From: an uncultured Acidobacteriota bacterium
GTDB taxonomy: Bacteria > Acidobacteriota > Thermoanaerobaculia > Multivoradales > UBA5704
DNA: 64,000 nucleotides
Direction of reading: 5' to 3'
Assembly (NCBI GenBank): GCA_963770895.1
Contig: CAVYRF010000002.1
Coordinates: forward strand, 1,056,001-1,120,000
The translations under genes and the position numbers were made by a program. Positions 2,688-16,957 of the stretch are shown piece after piece (positions within the stretch are counted from its first letter, which is position 1; the number at the start of each line of letters is the position of its first letter). A model generated the notes under the pieces. That model was not told where the DNA came from and did not search any database. It saw only the letters and a program-made list of their open reading frames with translations.

Positions 2688-3157
2688 CCTTACCCCTCGC
2701 GGCACGGCAAGCAGGCGGCCAAACAGGGCGGCAGATCCACTGCACCGCACTGAACCGACCACCCAGGCCGCAGCCAACCGCTCAAACCTTTCCAGGCGCC
2801 GCACCGGTTCGGCGGTGCTCCCCTCATCTGGTCCCCGAGGCGAGCGTGCTGCTTGGTCTTGATCACTGGAACGCGGCGGAGGGACGACGAACGGGACGGC
2901 AAAGCCATTGCGAGGAGGCCGCAGGAGCGGCGGACCAACAGCTCGATTGCAGTCCAGCAGACCGATCGGCCAATGGGTCAGCGGCAGGCCAATGCTCACC
3001 ATCAGCGATCGTGTCCCGCTATTTGCTGCTGGCGGCTACTTAGTCAAGTGAAGCGCCTGGAAGGCCCGTGTGTTGAATGTGCTGTAACGCTAGTCCTACA
3101 CATGGGACGAAAAATGTCTAACCGCGGGCCAGAAATGCAGTACACTGAGGAACGGTC

Positions 3158-3979
3158 ATGGAAACCTACCCGGCCGACGAGCAGGAAGTCCGTTACTACG
3201 CGGGAGTGCTGCGCCATGCGATCCGCGCCGCGGGCTTCTCGGTCAGCGAGATCGAGCGCCAGCTGGGCGCCGGCCCCAAGGCGCTGCGCCGGGTCTTCGG
3301 AGGCCAGGTCGATCTCAAATTCAAGCACGTGGTTGCGGTGCTGCGCGTCATCGGCATGCCGCAGGAGGAGTTCTTCGCCATCGCCGCTTCGCGGCGGCGC
3401 AAGCGCCGCTCGCCGGGAGGCGAGCTGCTGGCCATGATGCACCTCGGCCAGCGCACCGACACACCGCCGCTCGCGGAAATCGAGCCGCCGCCGCCGGGAC
3501 ATGCCGGCGCGCCTCTCTCCGACAACGCATTCGACGATTTGGTCGAAGAGGCCGTGAATCGGGTGATGGAGCGCCGCGCCCGCCAGGGAGGCTCGGCAAC
3601 CCAGAAGGCACCGCAGGACGCACCAGAGTCGGAGGCCGACGCGGAGACGGACGACGAAGAGCTGGACGACGACCTTACCGGCTCCGATGGTCCAGGCGGC
3701 TACCGGACCGGCGCCGAGTCAGCTGCGCCACACGGCCAGACGATCGGGGGCACCGGGTCGACCGGAGGGGCTGAAGGGGCAGCCGCGCCAGACCAGCCGG
3801 GAGATCGACGACGACGCCTGAAAAAGGGACCGGCAACGCCAGAGGAAACCGTCGCTGGCAAGCGGGGCAGCCAGGTTGACGCAGCAGATCCAGACGCTCT
3901 CGGCGCTACCAGCCAGGACCAAGCCGACGGCCCCAGCCAAGGCACCGACGACGACGCCGAGCGAGCCCGCCGCCGCTGA
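3158..3979 (+). CDS. XRE-like HTH regulator with a long acidic, disordered C-terminus
   Basis: N-terminal LRHAIRAAGFSVSEIERQLGAGPKALRRVFGGQVDLKFKHVVAVLRVIG fits an HTH; GAGGA RBS; C-terminal half is D/E/G/A/P-rich. Confidence 0.75.
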   Translation: METYPADEQEVRYYAGVLRHAIRAAGFSVSEIERQLGAGPKALRRVFGGQVDLKFKHVVAVLRVIGMPQEEFFAIAASRRRKRRSPGGELLAMMHLGQRTDTPPLAEIEPPPPGHAGAPLSDNAFDDLVEEAVNRVMERRARQGGSATQKAPQDAPESEADAETDDEELDDDLTGSDGPGGYRTGAESAAPHGQTIGGTGSTGGAEGAAAPDQPGDRRRRLKKGPATPEETVAGKRGSQVDAADPDALGATSQDQADGPSQGTDDDAERARRR

Positions 3980-4065
3980 ACCCCCAATTGCCGCTGCCTA
4001 GCGGCCGCGAGCAGAGGAATCGATAGCGCCTGGCTTGCCCTCGACAGCACGGGCTGCGGTTGCTC

Positions 4066-4143
4066 CCTGCCGGGAGTGCCGGGCCAAGCGACAGCCCCGG
4101 CCGACCTACCGGGAGTGCCGGGACAGGCGACAGCCCCGGCCGA
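4066..4143. repeat. 2 x 39-bp tandem repeat with internal hairpins between convergent genes
   Basis: cct(g/a)ccgggagtgccggg(c/a)ca(a/g)gcgacagccccggccga at 4066-4104 and 4105-4143. Confidence 0.85.
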
Positions 4144-4219
4144 CTCCTCGACATAGGTTCAACCATGCCTGCGTCGGCGCGCCTGGCCCGCGCCGCCGAA
4201 TGGCGATCGCAACGGGCGG

Positions 4220-5536
4220 TCAGCCAGGCACGGCCGGCGAGCTGGATGGGCGCGCCTGGCGCTCAAAGTCTCGCACGAAGCCGATGGCCATCTCGATCCC
4301 GTCGACGAGCTGACCGCCCACCAGGCAGGCCCGCCGCAGCACCAGCAGTGCCGCGATGGCCTCGCGGCCGATGCGCAGGGCTCGAAACGTTTCAACGACG
4401 TCCTCGCACAGCGAGTACACTTCGGCGACCCGCCCCTGGCGCGACCAGAGGAGCGCCAGCTGCAGGCCGATGCGCGCCGCCGGATAGATCTGCTGGCGAT
4501 CGGTGAACTCCTGTCGCGCCTGCTGGAACGCAGCTTCAGCGCTATCGAGCTTGCCGAGCCCAGCCAGGATGGTGCCTTCGAGCCAGCGCACGCGGCACGG
4601 CTCGATCCCGTCGAAGAGCGCCCGACAGCGCCATAGCAGACGTCGAGCGGCGCGGAAGCGGCCGAGATCGACCAAGTCGCCTATCAGGTTCCAGATGGTC
4701 ACGTTCACCAGCTCCCGATCGGCATCCAGATCGAGCAGGTCGAGCCCCCGGAGCTGCAAGACCAGCGCTTGCGCCGTCTGGTGGTCGTAGAGGGCGAGCA
4801 CCCCCTCGTTGATGAGCATCCTGCCGGCGAGCCGCCAGCGCCAGGCACTGGCATGGCTTTCGTAGGCCAGGGCGAGGAGCTCGCGCCCTTGCGGCGCCTG
4901 GCGTTGATATCCCAGGAGCGAAGCCAGCAGCTCGGCCACGCGAGCCAGCAAGAGATCGGAACCCGACCCCCGCCGGCACCAGTAGACGGCGCGATGCATG
5001 GCGCCGGCAGCACTGTGCAGATCGTCGCAAACTCGATAGGCGTTGGCCAGCTCGGCCCAGGCGAGCCCGCGCAGATCCGCGACCACCCGGCTGCCGTGTT
5101 CCCGCGCCCGCAAGCGGTCGGCGGCACAGACCGCCAACCTGGCGCAGGAGATCATGTCAGCAGGCGATTCTTCGCTCAGGCTGCGGCTGGCTTCCATCAG
5201 CGCCTGCAGGCGCTTGAGGCCGCTGGATCGACTGGCGCCGGCGGCGGTCAGGCTCCAGATGCGGCGCCCCTTCAACAGGCGGGCCAGAGTGTCGGCGGCC
5301 GCCTTTTTGGGGTCCCTGGCAGGTCTTTTCCTGCCGGGGGCCGCTACGGCTCCCACTGCGCCTGGGGCGCTCGGGGTGCTTGCTGCGGTCCGCAAGCGGG
5401 CCGCGGCCTGCGCCGGCCGCAGATCGTGCGGCCCTTGCGCCGGCCGTGACGGGCGCGCGTTGCGAGGGGCCGCGGCTGCCGCGCGGCGGCGAGTCTTTGG
5501 GTGGGCGGTCAGAGGCGCTTTGCGATCCTTGGGCAC
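4220..5536 (-). CDS. TPR-like all-helical cytoplasmic protein
   Basis: Repeated helical motifs (AWAELANAYRVCDDL, WLEGTILAGLGKLDSAEAAFQQARQEF, LALLWSRQGR, REAIAALLVL). GTG 5536 follows an AGGAGA RBS; ATG 5569 is an alternative start. Confidence 0.8.
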   Translation of the reverse strand: MPKDRKAPLTAHPKTRRRAAAAAPRNARPSRPAQGPHDLRPAQAAARLRTAASTPSAPGAVGAVAAPGRKRPARDPKKAAADTLARLLKGRRIWSLTAAGASRSSGLKRLQALMEASRSLSEESPADMISCARLAVCAADRLRAREHGSRVVADLRGLAWAELANAYRVCDDLHSAAGAMHRAVYWCRRGSGSDLLLARVAELLASLLGYQRQAPQGRELLALAYESHASAWRWRLAGRMLINEGVLALYDHQTAQALVLQLRGLDLLDLDADRELVNVTIWNLIGDLVDLGRFRAARRLLWRCRALFDGIEPCRVRWLEGTILAGLGKLDSAEAAFQQARQEFTDRQQIYPAARIGLQLALLWSRQGRVAEVYSLCEDVVETFRALRIGREAIAALLVLRRACLVGGQLVDGIEMAIGFVRDFERQARPSSSPAVPG

Positions 5537-5809
5537 TTTGAATCTCTCCTGAGCTGTACATTGTGCCATCGATTACGCACAAGCGGTAGTATCGGTTGAC
5601 CTCGAGACTCAAGAAAAATGCGCGAACAGGACCGCCAGCCGCACCCCAAGGGCACGAGAGGGAGACGCCGAATGCGACGTAAAGGCGCATCAACAAAGGC
5701 GAATCAGCGCCGGACGGAACTGCGACAGGACGGCTGCGAGCTCTTGAGCCATCGTTCTGCCGATCCGGGCCAGGCGGAGTCGGGGACTAGCTTTCGGGGT
5801 GTCGTGTCG

Positions 5810-5858
5810 AAAAACGGCCCCGCGCGACCTCGGGTTGGGTTCGCGGCGCGCGGGGCCG
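5810..5858 (-). terminator. Intrinsic terminator of the small secreted peptide gene
   Basis: Perfect 12-bp stem CGGCCCCGCGCG/CGCGCGGGGCCG followed by TTTTT on the minus strand, 7 bp after the stop. Confidence 0.8.
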
Positions 5859-5865
5859 AGGACTT

Positions 5866-6147
5866 CTATGGCTGGATCGCCGTTCCTACGACGCAGAGCC
5901 CATTGGGGTCTTTGTTGAAGGCGCAGGTCACGACCGGGCCAGTGCCGTCGGCCAACCGCACCGGCTTCCTGGCTGCCGGGGAGCCCTGCAATCGGTCGAG
6001 GCCTACGAAGTGGGCCACGGCTTGCGTCGCGGTATCGATCCAGCTCCCGGTGGCCCCAGGCCTGCTGGCAGCGGCGGGGGTCGCGAGCGTGAGTACGAGG
6101 CCCAGGGTTGCGGCGCTCAGGATGGGGTGATTGGATGTTGCGGGCAT
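5866..6147 (-). CDS. Small secreted pre-peptide (93 aa) with a C-terminal CAFNKDPNGLC motif
   Basis: GAAGGAGG RBS; Sec signal LSAATLGLVLTLATPAAA; own promoter and terminator. Confidence 0.8.
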   Translation of the reverse strand: MPATSNHPILSAATLGLVLTLATPAAASRPGATGSWIDTATQAVAHFVGLDRLQGSPAARKPVRLADGTGPVVTCAFNKDPNGLCVVGTAIQP

Positions 6148-6288
6148 GAGAACCTCCTTCGGCCGCGGGCAGTCTGGAGGCCGGCATGGTTTCCAGCTTC
6201 CGCGGTTGCTCCTTCGGAGCCGTCCGACCGGGTGAGCGGCGGACTACCGGTTGCAGCAGCCCGTTGCTCCCACCATCGGCTGACAGCT

Positions 6289-6297
6289 ATTATAGCA
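6289..6297 (-). promoter_or_regulatory. Extended -10 sigma-70 promoter (TGcTATAAT) for the peptide gene
   Basis: Exact consensus within an AT-rich island (about 6285-6337) in otherwise very GC-rich DNA. Confidence 0.75.
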
Positions 6298-6487
6298 ATA
6301 AATTGGAATATAGGCATTATTGAAGTTTCAGAATAAAGGCGCCGCCAGAGCCGCCGTACCGCGGCGTGCCGGACCTGTGCCCGGCGGAGTCGAAGTGCGC
6401 ACAAAAGAAAGACACTTACCGGCGGCAATCGGGTTACGAGACGGCGGAACGCCACGCGGCCCGCGCCAGCGCGCAGCCGCGTCAGCC

Positions 6488-6517
6488 TTGACCTGCTTGG
6501 CCAGGCAAGCCTATTCT
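6488..6517 (+). promoter_or_regulatory. Putative sigma-70 promoter
   Basis: TTGACC-N18-TATTCT upstream of the gene at 6569. Confidence 0.5.
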
Positions 6518-6568
6518 CGACATCTCTTGGAGTAGCCAGCGTCGCATCGCTCTCTTCCGTGAAAGGAG

Positions 6569-6835
6569 ATGGTCATGGGCATCTTCCACATCATCTGGGC
6601 CTGTATCGTGGGTTTCTTCGCCGGCTTGTGCGCCCGCGTCCTGATCGCCCATAACCACATGGGCCTGATCATGACGACGGTGCTCGGCATCGTCGGCTCG
6701 CTGGTCGGCGGCTTCATCGCCAGCCTGATTTGGAGACCCCGCAACGAACGCTTCCATCCCGCCGGCTTCCTGTTTTCGATCCTGGGCGCCGTGATCGTGC
6801 TTTGGCTCGCTCACAAGCTGGGCTGGAATTTCTAA
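6569..6835 (+). CDS. GlsB/YeaQ/YmgE (transglycosylase-associated) membrane protein
   Basis: IVGFFAGLCARVL...TTVLGIVGSLVGG...FSILGAVIVLWL; three TM segments; AAGGAG RBS. Confidence 0.9.
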   Translation: MVMGIFHIIWACIVGFFAGLCARVLIAHNHMGLIMTTVLGIVGSLVGGFIASLIWRPRNERFHPAGFLFSILGAVIVLWLAHKLGWNF

Positions 6836-7066: not shown

Positions 7067-9370
7067 ATGGTAAGTGCACGTCCAGCAGCGTTGATTCTTG
7101 CCCTTGCCGGCGGTTTGATGCCCTGTGTCCAGCAGGCAACCGGACACGGCGCGGCTTGGGCGCAGCCGGTCAGCAATGCCCGGCTTGTGCCAAGCCCCAT
7201 GGCCTCGCCCGCGACGACTCAACCCGCGCAGACTGCCCAGATCGTCCGACCCGGCAGCCTCGGCGTCGCCGGGCGGGTGCTGAGCAACACCACGCCGCTT
7301 GCCGCGGTCGAGGTGTACGCCTACCAGCTGGCCAGCTTCTCGCTGCGCCGCGTCGAAACGGACGGCCAGGGCAACTTCCTGTTCCGCGACCTGCCGGCGG
7401 GCCTCTACAAGATCATCGCGCACAAGCAGGGCTTCGCGCCGGTGGTCATCCTGCTCACCCGCACCGCCGCCCAGGCCTACCAGTATCTCGATCTGCAGCT
7501 GCCGCAACGGCAGGGCGGCGCGGCATCGACCGCGGCGGCCCCGGCCAAGCCTGCCAGCCCCGCCGACAACTTCTGGGCCCTGCGCTCCAGCCTGCCGCCG
7601 GACGTGCTGCGCGACGTCGAAGTGGCGGCGCTGGCCGGCCCCACCGGCCCGATCGCCGTTCCGGACACCGGCGCGGGCCCTGCGGCTGCGGCCGGCGACG
7701 GCCCCGTCCCCGATGCGCCGCAGAGCGGCGACGGCGAAATCAAGGCAGCCAGGGCGCCGCTGCCGGGCGAAGGCGGCTACGCACCGGGCGACGGGCGCTC
7801 GATTCCAGCCGGCGAAAGCCTGGCCGGCCGCTTCCGCACCGAGATCCAGGCCATGACCGGCGTGGCAGACATCGCCCAGGTGGGCGCCGGCCAGGTTTCC
7901 ACCGGCAAGGTGGGCATCCAGGGGCAGCTCGGCGACGTGAAGGTCGGCCTTTCGGGCCGCTTCTGGCTGCTCAATTCGGACGGCTCCGCCGCCGGCGGGC
8001 TGCGCGGGATGCCCGAAGCGAGCGACGGCCAGACCAGCAACGTCTCGCTCAACCTGCAGGCGGGCGCCGGCAGCAGGATCACCCTGGATTCCGTCAGCGA
8101 CCGGTTGGTGCCGCGCAGCGGCCTTGGCAGCGGCGATCCAGTCGGCCTGGATCACTACCAGGTGAGCTGGAGCCAGGCGCTGGGTGAGAGCAGCCATTCC
8201 GACTTCGCCGCCCAGTACACCGCGGCCAACAACTACAACCGCCTGGCGGTCTTCGAGCCGGCGAGCATCCCCGACGCCTCCCGCACCTGGCGGGTCGAAG
8301 GGGCGTACAGCACCAACCTCGGCGACGACAGCTCGCTGCAGACGGGTTTCCGCTACAGCGACCTGCAGGCTGAATTCTCCACGCCGGTGGCCAGCCCCGG
8401 CGGCGGCATCTCCACCTTCAGCAACCTGTCGGCGCAAAGCACCTCGACGCTGTCAGGGCTGACCGGCGCCAACGGTGTCGCGGCGATGCCGCTGGTCCCC
8501 GACTACCAGACGGTGGACCTGTTCAGCCGCGGCACGATGCGCCTGCAAAGTGCGTTCACCGTCGAATACGGCCTGTACACCATGCTCCAGGACGGCAGCC
8601 TGTCGCTCACTCCGCAAGGCGGCTTGGTCCTGCAGCTGGGCGACGGCTGGCAGGTGAAGGGTTCCGCCAGCCAGCGGGTCTACCAGGAAACGGCGGTCGC
8701 TCCCGAATACCTGCCGGTGCTCTACAAGGCAACCGATCTTTGCGAAGACGGCGGCAAGGCCTGCTACGAGATCGACCTCACCAGCCATGCCGGCGAAGAC
8801 AACTCGATCTCCTTCAGCGCGCTGGAGCGCATCGTCGGCCAGACGCTGCAGCTCTATTTCAGCGACGTGGTGTTCGATCGCTTCGAGAACCTCTACCTGG
8901 TTCCCGGCGACCGCCTGCCCGAGCTGCGCCTGATGATGACCTATCGCCTGTCGCCCCACGTCAGGACCCAGCTCGAAACCAGCGTGGCAAGCGGCGGCGG
9001 CGGCACCTTCTTCGGCGCCGACGGGCGGGCCTACCGCAACCAGGTGAGCTACGTGGTCACCTCGCTCGACACCCACGTGCTGAGCACCGCGACCGGTGTG
9101 TTCCTGGCCTTCCGCCACGTGACCCAGGATCTGAGCACGCCCGGCGGCGCCTCGACTTCCGGCGTCCTGGGCCCGGGCGCCACCACGGTCGGCTTCGACC
9201 GCGTGCAGCTGATGATCTCGCAGGACATGAACTTCCTGTGGAAGCTGGCCGCCGAATGGGCGCTCCAGGTCAACATGGAGCTGGAGCGTGACAACGCACC
9301 GTACCTGGCCAGCACCGACTCAGGGCAGATTCACCGTCGCATCCTCGGCGGCATCGCCGTCAAATTCTGA
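7067..9370 (+). CDS. Exported protein with a carboxypeptidase-regulatory-like (beta-sandwich) domain and a probable outer-membrane beta-barrel
   Basis: Signal peptide; TDGQGNFLFRDLPAGLYKIIAHKQGF motif; amphipathic beta strands; C-terminal GGIAVKF beta-signal. Confidence 0.7.
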   Translation: MVSARPAALILALAGGLMPCVQQATGHGAAWAQPVSNARLVPSPMASPATTQPAQTAQIVRPGSLGVAGRVLSNTTPLAAVEVYAYQLASFSLRRVETDGQGNFLFRDLPAGLYKIIAHKQGFAPVVILLTRTAAQAYQYLDLQLPQRQGGAASTAAAPAKPASPADNFWALRSSLPPDVLRDVEVAALAGPTGPIAVPDTGAGPAAAAGDGPVPDAPQSGDGEIKAARAPLPGEGGYAPGDGRSIPAGESLAGRFRTEIQAMTGVADIAQVGAGQVSTGKVGIQGQLGDVKVGLSGRFWLLNSDGSAAGGLRGMPEASDGQTSNVSLNLQAGAGSRITLDSVSDRLVPRSGLGSGDPVGLDHYQVSWSQALGESSHSDFAAQYTAANNYNRLAVFEPASIPDASRTWRVEGAYSTNLGDDSSLQTGFRYSDLQAEFSTPVASPGGGISTFSNLSAQSTSTLSGLTGANGVAAMPLVPDYQTVDLFSRGTMRLQSAFTVEYGLYTMLQDGSLSLTPQGGLVLQLGDGWQVKGSASQRVYQETAVAPEYLPVLYKATDLCEDGGKACYEIDLTSHAGEDNSISFSALERIVGQTLQLYFSDVVFDRFENLYLVPGDRLPELRLMMTYRLSPHVRTQLETSVASGGGGTFFGADGRAYRNQVSYVVTSLDTHVLSTATGVFLAFRHVTQDLSTPGGASTSGVLGPGATTVGFDRVQLMISQDMNFLWKLAAEWALQVNMELERDNAPYLASTDSGQIHRRILGGIAVKF

Positions 9371-9679: not shown

Positions 9680-12600
9680 ATGCGGTTTCGCACCCTCCAA
9701 CTCTCGCTCTGCCTCCTGGTGGGCGTCAGCGCGGCGGTGCTGGGCGCCGTCAGCGTCCGCAGCAACATCGCCGCCTTTCAAACCGTCGGCTTCCGCGGTG
9801 ACCGTGCGGGCGGCATCGTCCGCGTCGCCCAGGTCCAGGATCCCAGCTCGGGGCTTGCCGCGGGCGATCAGATCCTGCTGATCAACGGCGTCGAAGTCGG
9901 CGCCCAGGCCCAGGCCTGGGAGCAGGCGCTGCGCCACCAGCCGGTCAGCGACCTGGCCGTGCTGCGCGGCGCCCAGGTGCTGCGCGTCACCTACCGGCGC
10001 CCGCCGTTTGCCCCCAACCTGCCGTACCTGATCCGGGTGTTGATCGGCAGCGTCTACATGCTGATCGGCCTCTACACCCTGATCCGGCAGCAGGGACATG
10101 ACAGCTTCCTGTTCTGCCTCTGGTGCCTCACCTCGGCCCTGCTCTACCTGCTGTCGCCGGTGCCGCCGGCGGACACCGAGTATCGCCTGCTGTATGCCGG
10201 CAACCAGCTGGCGCGCTGCCTGCTGCCGGCGCTCACCCTGCACCTGTTCCGGATCTTCCCGTCGCCGGCGCCGGCAAGCGCCGCCGAAGGACGCGCGGAC
10301 AGACCCGCCGCCGGCGACGCCGCGGCGCCGGCGAACGCGGCGGCCGGAGCCCCCTGGGCGGCCGGGGCGACCGCAGCCACCAGAGCCGGAGCGCCCTGGG
10401 TCGCCTTCCTGTACCTGCCGGGCGCGGCGCTGCTGGCGCTGCACCTCGACCTGATGTTCGCCAACGGCCGCCTGCTGACCGGCCGCCCCACCGCCGCGCT
10501 GCTGGCGTCCCTGGACCGCCTCGACCTGCTGCACCTGATCTCCTTCAGCCTGGCGGCGGTCTTCGTGCTGGCGATCCGCCTGCTGCGCGAGACAGGGTGG
10601 GAGCGGCGCCGCCAGCTGCACTGGATGATCCTCGGCCTGGCGGGCGGCTACCTGCCGTTCCTGGGTCTGTACGCCGTGCCGTTCGGCCTGGGGTTGCGAG
10701 TGCCCCAGCTGCTGGCCGCCGCCGCCGTGCTGCCGCTGGCGGTGGTGCCGCTCACCTTCGCCTATGCCATCCTGCGCTACAAGCTCTGGGACATCGAAGT
10801 CATCGCGCGCGACGTGGCGGCCTGGACGCTCACCCTGCTGCTGGGCGTGCTCGGCTTCTCGCTGGTCAACCTGGCGATCAGCCGCGGCGTGGCGGCCGAC
10901 AACGCCCTGGGCCGCAACCTGCTCTCGTTCGCCGCCGGCATCGGCCTGGCGGGGCTGCTGGTGCCGACCCGCCAGAGCCTGTCCGCCGCCCTGGAGCGGC
11001 TGCAGTACCGCGGCACGTTCGGCAGGCGCCGCGCCCTGCTCGGCCTGGGCCGCGACCTGCTGCACGAGCGCGACCTGGGCCGCCTGTGCGGCGCGCTGCT
11101 GGATCGCCTCTCCGCCGGTCTCGACCTTGACCGGCTGGCCATCTACCTGGCGCAGGGCGACGCGCTGGTGGTGATCGACGCCATCTCGCCCCCCGATGCC
11201 GCGGAGCTGGCGCAGGCCATGCCCTTCGAGCACGAGCCGTCGCGGGGCGACGCCCACGACCCGGCCGCCGGCAGCTCGCAGGACCATGCAGTGGCGGCGC
11301 TCCAGCACCTGGGCGGTCGCGACCGCGGCCACCGCCCCCGCGCCAGGCGCTCGGCAGGGCGCCGCTCGTGGGCCGCCGCGGCGCCGCCCGTGGTGGCGGC
11401 GCAGGCGCTGGATCCCGCGGTATGGCGCGACAGCGAGGTGTACCGCCTGGCGGGCACGGAGCTGCCCGCCGGCGCCCCATCGCCGGCACAGCAGCTGTTC
11501 ATCGCCGGATACCGCTACGTCTTCCCGCTGCTGGTGCGCGGCCGCGGCATCGGGCTGGTGCTGACCGGCAGCAAGCGCCAGCAGGAGCCGCTCAACAGCG
11601 ACGACCTCGACATCGTGCGCCACCTGCTCGACCAGGCGGCGCTGGCGATCGAAAACGCCCAGCTGGTCGGCCAGCTGCACCACCAGTTGCAAGAGGTGCA
11701 GCGGCTGCAGAGCTACAGCGACGGCATCTTCGAGTCGTCCCCTGCCGGCATCGCCGTGCTCGACACCGGCGGCCGCCTGGTGACGGTGAACCCGGCCTTC
11801 TCCACCCTGGTCGCGATCGGGCGTGACCAGCTGATCGGCCGCACCCTGCAGTCGGTGCTGCCGGTCACGGCGCTCCCGGCGGCAGGCGAGGGGCCCATCG
11901 AAGTCAGCTGCCCGAGCCTGGGCGGCGAGGTCTGCGGCGCGCCGCGGCGCGATCTTGCCGATCTTGCCGATCGCCTGGCGGATGAGCCCGATCCCGCCGC
12001 CGCGCCGGGCGAGCGCCGCCTGCAGATGTCGCTCGCCGGCCTGGCTCCCGGCCACAGCCCGGACCGCGAGCCGCTGCGCATCCTGGTGGTCTACGACGTC
12101 TCCGAGCGCGTGGCGATGGAGGCGGCGCTCAAAGAGAAGGACCGCCTGGCCGCCTTGGGCATGCTGGCCGCCGGCGTGGCGCACGAGGTGAACACTCCCA
12201 TCACCGGCATCTCCAGCTACGCCCAGCTGCTGCTGGCCGATACCGCCGAAAGCGACCCGCGCTATCCGATCCTCAAGAAGGTCGAGCGCCAGACCTTCCG
12301 CGCCGCGCGCATCCTCAACAATCTGCTCGAGTTCGCTCGCGAGCGCCCGCGCGAGCGGCGGGCGGTCGCTCTGCTGCCGCTGCTGCGCGAATCGATCGAG
12401 CTTCTGGGCGAGCGCCTGGATCGCAGCGGCATCGACCTTGCCTGGGAGGTGCCGCCCGCAGGCGACGCCATCCAGGTGCTGGGCAGCGAAGACGAGCTGC
12501 AGCAGGTCTTCACCAACCTGCTCGCCAACGCGCTGGATGCCATGTCCAACCAGCCGCGCGGCCGCCTCGGCATCGGCATGGTCGCTGAGGACGCGCGCGT

Positions 12601-12828
12601 CGTCGTGCGCATCCAGGACACCGGCAGCGGCATCGCGCCGGAGCAGCTGAAGACGGTGTTCCAACCGTTCTATTCCACCAAGCTCCACCGCGGCGGCACC
12701 GGCCTGGGGCTCACCATCAGCCACGACATCGTGCAGCGCCACGGCGGTACACTTGCGGTCGAAAGCCAGCCAGGAGCCGGCACCTGTTTTGCCGTCGGGC
12801 TGCCACGCTACCGGGCGGCTGCATCTCA

Positions 12829-12832
<4 letters not shown>
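9680..12832 (+). CDS. Membrane sensor histidine kinase (PDZ-like, multi-TM, GAF, PAS, HisKA, HATPase)
   Basis: H-box AAGVAHEVNTP; N-box QVFTNLLANALDA; DTGSGI; FQPFYSTK; GTGLGL; GAF end QAALAIENA. Confidence 0.93.
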
Positions 12833-14211
<1,379 letters not shown>

Positions 14212-14296
14212 GCGCGCCCGCGCCCGCCCGGGCGGCGCTCCTGCCCCGGATCGCTCACCGACCTTTGTCTACCTTGCCATGTGGGAGAGGGTTGTC

Positions 14297-16957
14297 ATGC
14301 GTCGCAAGCTCAAGCTCACGCAGCTTTTGATCTGGACGACGGTCGCCGCGGCGCTCGCCGCCGCGGGCGCCACGGCAAGTCAGGTGCCGGCAGGTCTGCT
14401 GGCGCCGCTGTCCAACGGCGAGGTCCTGGACCTGCCGGCGATCGACGACCGCGTGCCGCGGCCCGACCAGTTCCTGGGCTATCCGATCGGCAGCCGCTTC
14501 ACCCATTGGGAGCGCATCAGCGCCTATTTCGACGCGCTGGCCGCCGCCTCGCCGCGGGTCAAGGTATGGGAGTACGGCCGCACCTACGAAGGGCGGCCGC
14601 TCAAGCTGGCGGCCATCGGCAGCCCCGAAAACCTGGCGCGGCTTGACGACATCCGCCGCCAGCGGCAGCGCCTCGCCGAACCGCAGGGGCTTGCCGGCGG
14701 CGAGCGCAGCCATCTCGCGGAGCATCTGCCGGCGGTGGTATGGCTGGCCTACGGGGTGCACGGCGACGAAGCCTCGTCGTCCGAAGCGGCGATGGTCGCC
14801 GCCTGGGCCCTTGCCGCCGGCCAGGGGGAAGCGGCGGACATGCTCGCCGGCACCATCGTCCTGATCGATCCGCTGTGCAACCCCGACGGCCGCGAGCGCT
14901 ACGTCCACGGCTTCGAGCAGCGCGAAGGAGCCGTCCCCAATCCGCGCCGCGACGCCGCCGAGCACTTCCAGCCCTGGCCCGGCGGCCGCCCCAACCACTA
15001 CCTGATCGACCTCAATCGCGACTGGGCCTGGGCGACGCAGCAGGAGACCCGCAGCCGCATCGCCGCCTACCGCGCCTGGGAACCGCAGGTCTACGTCGAT
15101 TTTCACGAGATGGCGACCGACGCCAGCTACTTCTTCCCGCCCCCCGCCGAGCCGGTGCACCCGCTCATCGATCGCCGGGTGCTGGCGTGGCTGGACGTCT
15201 TCGGGCGCGCCAACGCCGCGGCCTTCGACCGCCAGGGGTGGGTCTACTACAAGCAGGAGGAATACGACCTCTTCTATCCCGGCTACGGCGATTCCTATCC
15301 CAGCCTGCACGGCGCCGTCGGCATGACCTACGAGATGGCCGGCGGCGGCCGCGGCGGCCTGGCGGTCGACCGCCAGGACGGCACCGAGCTGACGCTCGCC
15401 GATCGCGTCGCGCGCCACCTGACCACCTCGCTCGCCACGGTCAGGACCGCCAGCCGCAACGCCCGCAAGCTGATGCAGGACTTCGTGGCCACGCGGGTGC
15501 AGGCGGAGGAGGGGCCGGGCCAGGTCTACCTGTGGCTCGCCAATCAGCCCGAGGCGCGAGCGCTGGCCGACCTGCTGGCGCTGCACGGGGTGCGCGTCGG
15601 CGAGCTGGCGCAGTCCACCGAGCTGGCCGTCCAGCCGGTCTTCGGACCCCACGCCGCCGGGCAGCGGCGCTTCCCGGCCGGCACCTTCGCGGTGTCCACC
15701 GCGCAGCCGCTGGGCGCCCTGGTACAGGCCCTGCTGGCGCGCGAGGCGCCGATGTCGGACACCTTCCTGGCGCGCCAGCGCCAGCGCTTCGAGCAGAACC
15801 GCGACACCGAGTTCTACGACATCACCGCCTGGGCGCTGCCGCTCGCCTACAACGTGCAGGTGTGGAGCGCCGGCGGCGACGCGCTGCCGCCGACCCGGCC
15901 GCCGGGTGACGCGACCGCAGCCAGCATCGCCGGCAGCGGCGAGCTGGGCTGGCTGGTGCCGCCGCAAGGCCTGGCCTCCTACCGCCTGGCCGCCGAGCTG
16001 CAGCAGCGCCACATCCACCACCGGCTGGCGCTCTACCCGCTGGCGGACGGCGGCGAGGAGTATCCGGCAGGCACGCTCTTCATCCCGCGCGGCGGCAACC
16101 CGGCCGACACCGCCGACAGGCTGGGCGGACTGCTGGCCGCAAGCGGCGCCGGCGCCCGCGCCATCGCGTCGTCGTTCCAGGTGAGCGGCCTGTCGCTCGG
16201 GTCGAACGGCATGCCGTCGGTGCGGCCCGCTCGCGTCGGCGTGCTCTCCGGGCCGGGAGTGGATTCCACCTCCTTCGGCTTTGTCTGGTTCCTGCTGGAC
16301 CGCGAAGTGGGCCTGCCCTGCGACCGCCTGGACGTCGACCACCTGCGGCCGGCGGCGCTGGCCGACCTGGACGTCCTGGTGCTGCCCGACGGGGCGTACG
16401 AAGAGCACCTGGGCGAGCGGGCGCGCGGCGCGCTCGACGCCTGGATCAAGGCCGGCGGCGAGCTGGTCGCCATCGGCGGCCAGACCGAGCGCTGGCTGCA
16501 CGATCACGACATGGTGTCGTTCAAGCCGTGGAAGGCGCCGGCCGCGGACGAAGAGAGCGAAGGCAGCCACGACAAGGCGCTGGGCGAGCGCGACATCAAC
16601 ACCCCCGGCGCCGTGCTCGCCACCCGCCTGGCCGCCCTGCACCCGCTGGCCGCCGGCGTCCCCTCGGCGCCGCCGATGCTGGTCAAGGGCGCCGCCGTCG
16701 TCCTCGCCTCGGGCGACCCGCGCCGCGACGTGCTGGTCGTCTCGCCACAGGAACCGGTCCTGGCCGGCTTTGCCTGGCCCGAAGCCAGGCAGCGCCTGGC
16801 CGGGTCGCTGCTGGTCGGCGTCGAGCAACGCGGCAGCGGCAGCGTCGTGCTGTTCCTGCAGGAGCCGGCGTTTCGCATGTTCTGGCGCGGCACCATGCCG
16901 CTGCTGCTCAACGCCGTGATGTACGGACCGTCGATCAGCTGGAGCGGCAGAAACTGA
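14297..16957 (+). CDS. Secreted M14-family zinc carboxypeptidase with a C-terminal class I GATase-like domain
   Basis: HGDE, NPDGRER, DLNRDW and DFHEM zinc/substrate motifs; signal peptide; ATG 14279 is an alternative start. Confidence 0.9.
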   Translation: MRRKLKLTQLLIWTTVAAALAAAGATASQVPAGLLAPLSNGEVLDLPAIDDRVPRPDQFLGYPIGSRFTHWERISAYFDALAAASPRVKVWEYGRTYEGRPLKLAAIGSPENLARLDDIRRQRQRLAEPQGLAGGERSHLAEHLPAVVWLAYGVHGDEASSSEAAMVAAWALAAGQGEAADMLAGTIVLIDPLCNPDGRERYVHGFEQREGAVPNPRRDAAEHFQPWPGGRPNHYLIDLNRDWAWATQQETRSRIAAYRAWEPQVYVDFHEMATDASYFFPPPAEPVHPLIDRRVLAWLDVFGRANAAAFDRQGWVYYKQEEYDLFYPGYGDSYPSLHGAVGMTYEMAGGGRGGLAVDRQDGTELTLADRVARHLTTSLATVRTASRNARKLMQDFVATRVQAEEGPGQVYLWLANQPEARALADLLALHGVRVGELAQSTELAVQPVFGPHAAGQRRFPAGTFAVSTAQPLGALVQALLAREAPMSDTFLARQRQRFEQNRDTEFYDITAWALPLAYNVQVWSAGGDALPPTRPPGDATAASIAGSGELGWLVPPQGLASYRLAAELQQRHIHHRLALYPLADGGEEYPAGTLFIPRGGNPADTADRLGGLLAASGAGARAIASSFQVSGLSLGSNGMPSVRPARVGVLSGPGVDSTSFGFVWFLLDREVGLPCDRLDVDHLRPAALADLDVLVLPDGAYEEHLGERARGALDAWIKAGGELVAIGGQTERWLHDHDMVSFKPWKAPAADEESEGSHDKALGERDINTPGAVLATRLAALHPLAAGVPSAPPMLVKGAAVVLASGDPRRDVLVVSPQEPVLAGFAWPEARQRLAGSLLVGVEQRGSGSVVLFLQEPAFRMFWRGTMPLLLNAVMYGPSISWSGRN

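Follow-up and report, generated by a model that had tools for sequence, protein, structure and literature searches.

The stretch of DNA analyzed here, referred to as the window, comprises 64,000 nucleotides from an uncultured Acidobacteriota bacterium, and the present work concerns a small gene on its minus strand (positions 5866 to 6147) together with the two genes that accompany it. Minus-strand translation of this interval, which includes the stop codon, yields the 93-amino-acid (aa) protein P0001, the same protein that a preliminary description, made from the sequence alone, had proposed to be a secreted peptide. The next gene downstream, on the same strand, codes for a protein of the tetratricopeptide repeat (TPR) type (P0008; 4220 to 5536), 438 aa long when read from the GTG at 5536, which is preceded by a Shine-Dalgarno sequence GGAGAG (5544-5549); an in-frame ATG at 5569 would give a version of 449 aa. 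The third member of the module is an XRE-type helix-turn-helix (HTH) gene on the plus strand (P0086, 273 aa; 3158 to 3979), convergent with the TPR gene.

The peptide gene and its transcription

The Trp-containing segment, the basic linker and the two sole Cys residues around nine others that had been described for this open reading frame (ORF) are all reproduced by the translation, in the order signal peptide, Trp-containing helix, basic linker and Cys loop. The predicted Sec signal peptide spans residues 1-27 (6067 to 6147, minus strand), with a hydrophobic core ILSAATLGLVLTLA and a likely cut after AAA; the hydrophobic maximum is a stretch of 19 residues (9-27; Kyte-Doolittle value of 1.77), next to which comes AAA|S. 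The n-region must be considered weak, since the first 10 residues contain neither K nor R, and the predicted signal peptide aligns with basic n-regions and AxA sites in the relatives of P0001 (e.g. MPRPSRRLALT...AQA|G). Then follow an amphipathic helix SWIDTATQAVAHFVGL (residues 35-50; 5998 to 6045, minus strand), which a 15-sequence alignment of the peptide family (A3) puts opposite GWLDTLAHQLAQWTASWW of the relatives, a basic stretch ARKPVRL, and the core CAFNKDPNGLC (residues 75-85; 5893 to 5925, minus strand), in which Cys75 and Cys85 enclose a DPNG turn. An AlphaFold2 (AF2) model of P0001 places helices at residues 8-21 and 35-47 and single bridge residues at 79 and 85, with a mean predicted local distance difference test (pLDDT) value of 53.7 that is too low for use.

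The gene is framed by signals of its own. A Shine-Dalgarno sequence AAGGAGG (6153 to 6159, minus strand) is read 5 nt before the ATG, and a GGAGG-type ribosome site occupies the same place in 10 of the 11 family genes inspected. Farther upstream, the AT-rich patch 6283-6336 contains a candidate extended -10 element TGCTATAAT (6289 to 6297, minus strand), whose TATAAT hexamer lies at 6294-6289. Past the gene, computed folding places a terminator-like structure (5809 to 5858, minus strand) made up of a GC-rich hairpin (5858-5815), beginning 8 nt after the stop codon of P0001, and a UUUUU run (5813-5809); its folding energy is -36.5 kcal/mol (z -3.97), and none of 200 shuffled sequences was as stable. 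Hairpins after the stop codon were also found in the other cassettes that were folded. A scan for consensus promoters and terminators returned no minus-strand entry, the TGCTATAAT element included, and the loop of the hairpin exceeds the 8-nt limit of the scan.

The length of the ORF is by itself no evidence for a gene, since the window, with a GC content of 71%, holds 351 stop-to-stop frames of at least 93 aa. GC content at the third codon position is likewise uninformative (0.83 for both the P0001 ORF and its antisense shadow ORF), and only the excess of GC at the first over the second codon position favors P0001. The preliminary description had feared that automatic annotation would miss the gene among longer overlapping frames; this proved unfounded, as the exact 93-aa protein is already present in a protein collection as a called gene. 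RNA contigs on the gene, which bear on the lack of transcription that it had named as refuting, were found in three soil/root metatranscriptomes from three studies, among the sequencing runs matching positions 3100-6600 of the window. These yielded, respectively, one 405-nt contig over 5860-6270 (run X6, depth 10.1), contigs over 5821-6029 and 6007-6223 (X10), and contigs over 5894-6097 and 6117-6267 (X12). All three carry an in-frame 6-nt deletion at 5938, which matches the 91-aa allele P0002, shorter by two residues at that place. Contigs prove neither strand nor level and DNA carry-over is possible, yet large parts of the 3.5-kb stretch are without RNA cover; no RNA contig lies on 3100-3918, 5206-5790 or 6376-6492, where the contig data say nothing on absent transcription. 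Two studies have RNA contigs that terminate, free of loose ends, at 6270 and 6267, whereas a DNA contig continues, and these ends, 19-22 nt downstream of the TATAAT hexamer, give a weak hint of a transcript start.

Selection leaves its mark as well: dN/dS is between 0.28 and 0.54 in every one of seven pairs formed by related peptide genes at genus level, a range indicating that the relatives of the gene are under purifying selection. The ORF is, on these grounds (Shine-Dalgarno sequence, terminator, previously called gene, RNA contigs and in-frame allele), a real, transcribed gene. The opposite view, of a frame open by chance in DNA of high GC content or of a family copy in decay, would find some support in the many frames of comparable length, in the signal peptide devoid of K and R near its start and in the loss of a conserved motif from the adjacent TPR protein (see below); given the expression signals, four homologues that keep the layout down to 36% identity, the in-frame indel allele recovered in three studies and the selection on its relatives, we assign this view a negligible probability.

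The peptide family and its x-D-P-x-G core

No family in Pfam or NCBIfam matches the peptide, and six other members of its family gave a single chance-level match against the same collections (E 0.0013, 18 bits against a cut-off of 696 bits). A word-indexed search of 5.8 billion proteins retrieved P0002 (94% identity) and P0003 (64%), and HMMER, run exhaustively against 1.84 billion representatives, brought in only P0004, P0006 and two long proteins. All four short relatives keep both Cys residues, the nine-residue spacing and DP[NS]G, with identity as low as 36%, and hence the homologues conserving the turn on which the preliminary description had staked its proposal do exist. The long proteins, P0005 (4095 aa) and P0007 (1115 aa), present seven matched stretches each (E 7e-8 and 8e-5), and may represent low-complexity matches or repeated DPxG-like units.

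Profile searches extend the family considerably. The profile of a 5-sequence alignment (A2) finds members in 7 of the 92 genomes searched from the same taxonomic family, and the A3 profile in 56 of the 300 searched from the order, including 43 of the 91 from the same family; in 400 other genomes, drawn evenly across the phylum, the latter finds none at E <= 1e-4. Small ORFs of the kind that the preliminary description had suggested looking for in relatives (a signal peptide with DP[NDS]G) form a sizeable group, with lengths of 88-164 aa (some above 100), and they appear, as judged from their sequences, to constitute a lineage-restricted, unnamed type of exported peptide. Searching the ESM Atlas with the peptide gave a best score of 0.79, within the noise range, and scans of genome contigs with the peptide alignment and with the TPR protein gave zero confirmed loci. 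L004 and L002/L010 were rejected: the first, the sole locus from a scan of metagenome contigs, is a false positive lying antisense to an SMC gene, and in L002/L010 the similarity is confined to the signal-peptide region within a long unrelated ORF. Matches in the families f3, f5 and f8 (L060, L064-L068) have no TPR neighbor within about 3 kb and are treated as unconfirmed; one of them, L065 (G026:C1), encodes four GPGxDPxG repeats.

The proposed pre-pro-peptide organization is conserved in every relative found, all members having, after the signal peptide, a helix rich in Trp (consensus GWLDTLAHQLxQWTASWW), then a linker of Pro, Ala and basic residues, and last the C-terminal core. What varies is the core itself. 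In A2 the invariant positions are C75, D80, P81, G83 and C85; in A3 they are reduced to P81 and G83, and C-x9-C is found in 13 of 15 sequences. Among 24 further members extracted, 22 contain one to four D-P-x-G cores, and a Cys bracket surrounds the core in only 8. Hence, the Cys-bracketed DPNG loop put forward in the preliminary description stands for the close relatives, which keep the Cys pair and DP[NS]G, but does not describe the wider family. The invariance of P and G and the scarcity of brackets lead us to regard a short x-D-P-x-G turn as the conserved unit and the disulfide bracket as a lineage-specific addition. The core is repeated and often C-terminal: several linear members end exactly in DP(N/D)G (e.g. 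...IDPNG, ...MDPDG), Cys-less repeats reach four copies of MDP[DN]G in L029, and multi-loop forms comprise three copies of C-x-IDP[SD]G-x-C in L075 and four loops in G000 C2:3839044-3839592. The third core residue, before the invariant G, is mostly N or D, with S, T, G and L also occurring. A divergent case is L059 (G137:C62), in which three copies of DED(S/T)(L/V)VIIP(I/A)G replace DPxG.

These features bear on two further views of the peptide. It might be a periplasmic or surface component, either a redox- or protease-sensitive reporter of the envelope or a turn that binds metals or Ca, with only co-regulation connecting it to the cytoplasmic regulators encoded beside it. A Sec signal would place it in the periplasm of a diderm cell, a Cys pair could report the redox state there, and Asp-rich turns can bind cations; most members are nevertheless Cys-less, the cores have only one or two acidic residues, and no membrane-spanning sensor is conserved with the cassette in the loci for which wide flanks were analyzed, so that this view is improbable. 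The multi-core architecture and the prevalence of N or D before the invariant G would also suit a Sec-exported precursor akin to ribosomally synthesized and post-translationally modified peptides (RiPPs), whose cores would be altered before acting, be it by succinimide/isoAsp formation at (N/D)-G, by hydroxylation or by D-P or N-G cleavage. For succinimide formation, no sequences are more prone than N-G and D-G. Against it, a conserved modifying enzyme was not found within about 8 kb in 12 wide loci, neither MNIO/DUF692 nor any other modifying enzyme appears among the 112 ORFs called within about 5 kb in these loci or among the window genes scanned, and the occurrence of S, T, G and L at the N/D position means that succinimide chemistry is not obligatory. 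We consider a RiPP-like precursor highly improbable, and even taken jointly such modification and the other exported roles are distinctly unlikely.

The TPR and HTH partners

The association of the peptide gene with a TPR gene is a constant of the family. A TPR homologue follows the peptide gene in 7 of 7 genus-level loci and in L011, and stands directly 3' of it in 22 of 24 short loci, in 13 of 13 loci with wide flanks and in 12 of 20 additional loci (E <= 1e-30). The sources of these homologues carry names such as 'Thermoanaerobaculia bacterium' and 'Acidobacteria bacterium', from which the host of the cassette is taken to belong to a Gram-negative (diderm) phylum. A conserved DNA block TGCGTAATCGATGGCACAAT (5560 to 5579, minus strand) recurs before the TPR start in 8 related loci as CTGCG(T/C)AA(T/A)CGATGG(C/T)ACAAT, 20-30 nt before the start codon (window, L006-L009, L012-L014), and may be an extended -10-like element, perhaps with an overlapping operator. 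In four of these loci (L006, L007, L008 and L014) a divergent ORF with an XRE-HTH-like N-terminus was noticed upstream of the peptide gene, and the intergenic region they share contains a GCAAC-N-GTTGC inverted repeat, read by eye.

The TPR protein is taken to be cytoplasmic, since it has no N-terminal signal peptide and its sole hydrophobic 19-mer, which includes two Arg, lies inside the folded repeats. An AF2 model built on a 41-sequence alignment is a TPR superhelix of about eight repeats, with pLDDT values of at least 76 over residues 111-440 except for one 10-residue block, and with the N-terminal 110 residues of the window copy disordered. In Pfam the window copy gives a sub-threshold match to TPR_2 (E 0.023), and its orthologues carry PF13424. 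The N-termini of the orthologues share a pattern ...G-x-L-x(9)-H-L-L-x-x-C-P-x-C, of which the H and the two C are each at least 90% conserved. Two variants of the arrangement deserve mention: L050 (G082:C1:6764000-6780500) contains two peptide-TPR cassettes in tandem, and L052 and L053 each have a TPR gene divided between two overlapping frames, suggesting a frameshift or a pseudogene.

The three-gene order is likewise a recurrent one: of 13 wide loci, 10 have a convergent XRE-HTH gene, encoding 130-270 aa, that adjoins the TPR gene. The HTH protein of the window is 54-56% identical to those encoded at the same position in L047, L048 and L055. Its own match to Pfam HTH_31 (E 0.0066) falls below the cut-off; six of the eight proteins of the HTH alignment A5 that come from outside the window (L048, L049, L051, L055, L056 and L057), and that of L058, match HTH_3 or HTH_31 at E <= 1e-4, and weaker matches, like that of the window, occur in L047 and L050. 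Eight of the ten HTH sequences had been used to build the HTH hidden Markov model, of which the Pfam calls are independent.

The cassette has many paralogues. At E <= 1e-5, the TPR-family profile matches 51 ORFs in the genome from which the window derives, and the N-termini of these TPR paralogues consist of either the H/C/C motif or an XRE-HTH. In all 8 of the paralogues flanking peptide genes that were tested, HTH_3 scores above the Pfam cut-off and is joined to the TPR domain in a single protein. At L079-L082 (G000 C2:493001-498000, C1:2037001-2041500, C2:5554001-5559500 and C2:1899501-1904500) the cassette takes a second, fused form, in which pairs of XRE-HTH-TPR fusions flank peptide genes with two to four Cys-bracketed DPxG loops. 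An extracytoplasmic function (ECF) sigma factor gene adjoins 3 of the 51 TPR paralogues. At G000 C2:2999690-3002048, for instance, an ECF sigma gene (Sigma70_r2) is divergent from a Cys-less peptide gene (...MDPDGAL) and a TPR gene; no Sigma70_r2 match adjoins the window cassette, the nearest in the window lying about 25 kb away at C2:1086801.

Several other features of the window were recorded. Between the convergent HTH and TPR genes, positions 4045-4205 form a repeat-like element, on which the DNA depth in run X1 is 65.9 against about 6 nearby; contigs have loose ends on both of its sides in 4 of 4 runs, and one contig skips 4045-4116. On the other side of the peptide gene lie genes for a small membrane protein of the GlsB/YeaQ/YmgE type (6569-6835), a CarboxypepD_reg-domain protein of 767 aa (7067-9370), a GAF-PAS histidine kinase with a sigma-54 response regulator (9680-14211) and an M14 carboxypeptidase-domain protein (14279-16957), none of which is conserved beside other cassettes.

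Interpretation and comparison with known systems

Our preferred, if tentative, interpretation is that P0001 is the precursor of an exported signaling peptide and the adjacent TPR protein its receptor, the two forming, by analogy, an RRNPP-like cassette in a Gram-negative phylum. The 93-aa precursor would be exported by Sec and, as its sequence and that of its relatives suggest, cut after AAA27; the Trp-containing helix and the linker would act as a pro-region, from which CAFNKDPNGLC would be released, probably as a disulfide-closed loop in the periplasm. At sufficient concentration the peptide would, as in analogous systems, re-enter the cell and bind to the inner groove of the TPR protein (4220-5536), which together with the XRE-HTH protein (3158-3979) would alter transcription, probably including that of the cassette itself. 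The signal or ligand role envisaged in the preliminary description fits an invariant neighbor of a peptide-binding type that is coupled to an XRE-HTH partner, and import is possible in principle, given that the genome encodes two binding proteins of the OppA/DppA type.

A number of observations weigh against such a reading. Export, cleavage, disulfide formation, uptake and binding are all inferred steps, and a released peptide, about 1.1 kDa in size, would need to pass the outer membrane of a diderm cell twice, on its way out and on its way back. The window copy of the TPR protein has lost all three residues of the H/C/C motif, and for this reason the window cassette may work differently from its relatives. 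A crude regular expression finds a peptide gene beside only 16 of the 51 TPR paralogues; the genes so found number 11 once duplicates are merged, a few of them containing three or four Cys loops, and with two that the expression misses and that were verified by eye (the window's own and C2:2873717-2874142) the genome has at least 13. In a Foldseek search of the PDB the model of the TPR protein first matches generic peptide-binding TPR proteins (LGN/Pins, designed consensus TPR proteins, kinesin light chain), with RapF at rank 24 and RapI at rank 48. An exhaustive VIA search of 48,161 chains likewise puts eukaryotic proteins on top (Pins, Z 23.9; LGN, 23.4), followed among RRNPP receptors by RapI (20.3), NprR with NprX (19.1), phi105 Rap with its peptide (18.8), RapH (18.5), pLS20 Rap (17.7) and PlcR with PapR (15.3). 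These six are among the top 30 and RapI is the highest-ranked bacterial or phage chain, but TPR superhelices match one another broadly and the likeness to Rap, NprR and PlcR is therefore not specific. Accordingly, the match of the modeled fold points to a peptide-binding type of fold and not to homology; no RRNPP-receptor family was found in Pfam or NCBIfam, and no such PDB sequence matched at E <= 1. Prediction of a complex between the whole TPR protein and residues 28-93 of the peptide reached a best score of 0.24 against a mark of 0.32, in a run without controls, a result that weighs neither way on binding.

Two further points against the signaling interpretation also speak for a different role. 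In A3 the conservation of the Trp-rich helix is about on a par with that of the core, which is unusual for a mere pro-region and hints at a function of its own, and across 12 wide loci no enzyme, transporter or protease is conserved by the cassette, leaving import and processing without a dedicated gene nearby. The peptide could hence be the regulated output of the module, either an exported effector with a membrane-active helix directed against competitors or a surface or periplasmic factor, with the TPR and XRE-HTH proteins as regulators responding to some other cue. The strong Shine-Dalgarno sequence and terminator of the peptide gene, next to a TPR gene with a promoter-like block of its own, would be in line with a highly expressed product encoded beside its regulators. 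Such an output role leaves unexplained, however, the one to four x-D-P-x-G repeats, their variable Pro-rich spacers and the frequent exact C-terminus, as well as the constant peptide-binding-type TPR neighbor with its HTH-TPR fusions, and the lack of an immunity gene or exporter with the cassette in the 12 wide loci tells against it too. We deem it rather unlikely.

If the signaling interpretation is correct, the cassette would be the first peptide quorum- or kin-sensing system of RRNPP type in a Gram-negative phylum, implying that such communication arose or spread in diderm bacteria, and it would offer both a handle on the social behavior of a phylum with almost no known signaling systems and a naturally diversified set of mini-peptide and TPR pairs. 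To our knowledge, peptide signaling through cytoplasmic TPR proteins has so far been known only from Gram-positive bacteria and treated as a specialty of the Firmicutes; full-text literature outside subscription journals returned nothing for RRNPP together with Acidobacteria or Acidobacteriota, and broader queries likewise returned nothing relevant. A wider, more doubtful extension is that an order of soil Acidobacteriota (class Thermoanaerobaculia, by the names of the homologues) possesses a large private repertoire of ribosomal peptide signals, numbering at least 13 cassettes in the genome of the window, whose Sec-exported precursors would bear one to four x-D-P-x-G turns in linear or disulfide-cyclised form, each with an adjacent cytoplasmic TPR receptor and an XRE-HTH or zinc-finger output, and in which the succinimide-prone (N/D)-G step may serve as a built-in timer of the signal. 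Confirmation would be noteworthy for a conserved and expressed system, massively duplicated in abundant and poorly studied soil Acidobacteriota, that would follow the RRNPP logic with different parts. Even if signaling were to prove wrong, there would remain a module of three genes that lacks annotation and whose turn motif is repeated in a striking manner.

Among known systems, several share isolated traits with the cassette. Bufferins are RiPP precursors with Sec signals, Bowman-Birk inhibitors display short Cys-bracketed loops that may recur in tandem, and the 'Rana box' peptides of frogs combine an amphipathic helix with a C-terminal disulfide loop. The resemblance is one of shape only: neither MNIO nor another modifying enzyme is encoded nearby here, most members are Cys-less and the register of the Bowman-Birk loop does not fit. 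Bowman-Birk-type loops, class IIa bacteriocins, the Rana box and Ca-binding loops were accordingly discarded as models, none of them fitting the Cys-less majority of the family. The N-terminal H/C/C motif of the TPR orthologues recalls zinc-binding anti-sigma factors (ZAS; zf-HC2, PF13490), as do the paralogue at L054:5122-6489, which scores against PF13490 (E 2.1e-5), and the ECF sigma genes that adjoin a few TPR paralogues. On the other hand, the orthologues mostly present H-x4-C-x2-C instead of H-x3-C-x2-C, Pfam scans of two close paralogues missed the motif, the window copy has neither the ligands nor a PF13490 match, and the conserved neighbor of the TPR gene is an XRE-HTH gene and not a sigma factor. 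Cyanobacteria provide another parallel in PatS/PatX-HetR, where a small ribosomal peptide with a short C-terminal active motif is sensed by the cytoplasmic regulator HetR; PatX is hydrophobic at its N-terminus and rich in Pro in its middle part. The likeness lies in a small Gram-negative peptide with a short C-terminal motif, whereas the motifs (RGSGR-type against DPxG) and the sensors (HetR against TPR) differ, and PatX scored 0.75 in the ESM Atlas search, within the noise range and without sequence similarity.

The closest parallel is with the RRNPP systems found in Firmicutes and in their phages and plasmids (Rap-Phr, NprR-NprX, PlcR-PapR, PrgX, AimR-AimP). The work presenting RRNPP_detector (PMC10075063) gives as their signature a small propeptide of 10-100 aa, Sec export, a receptor of 250-500 aa, TPRs and adjacency of the two genes, and describes a screen of Firmicutes and viruses only. 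Set against the signature as given there, the cassette comprises a 93-aa propeptide, a putative receptor of 438 aa, TPRs and direct adjacency, with Sec export as a prediction. Here too a small gene for a propeptide with a predicted Sec signal stands beside a gene for a cytoplasmic TPR protein, the presumed active part lies at or near the C-terminus of the propeptide, the putative receptor is linked to an XRE-type HTH, to which it is fused in cassette paralogues, many paralogous cassettes coexist in one genome, and RapI heads the bacterial and phage structural matches of the TPR model. There are, however, clear differences. The host belongs to a diderm acidobacterial lineage; the HTH is encoded by a separate, convergent gene, and the TPR orthologues have instead an N-terminal H-x4-C-x2-C; the precursors combine a conserved helix rich in Trp with cores that are repeated up to four times (one to four copies), some of them predicted to be disulfide-bracketed; and the putative receptor has no detectable sequence homology to Rap, Rgg, NprR, PlcR, PrgX or AimR, the correspondence being at the level of fold only. 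Provided that the proposed mechanism holds, the cassette is thus RRNPP-like in its working, yet it stands outside the RRNPP family by homology.

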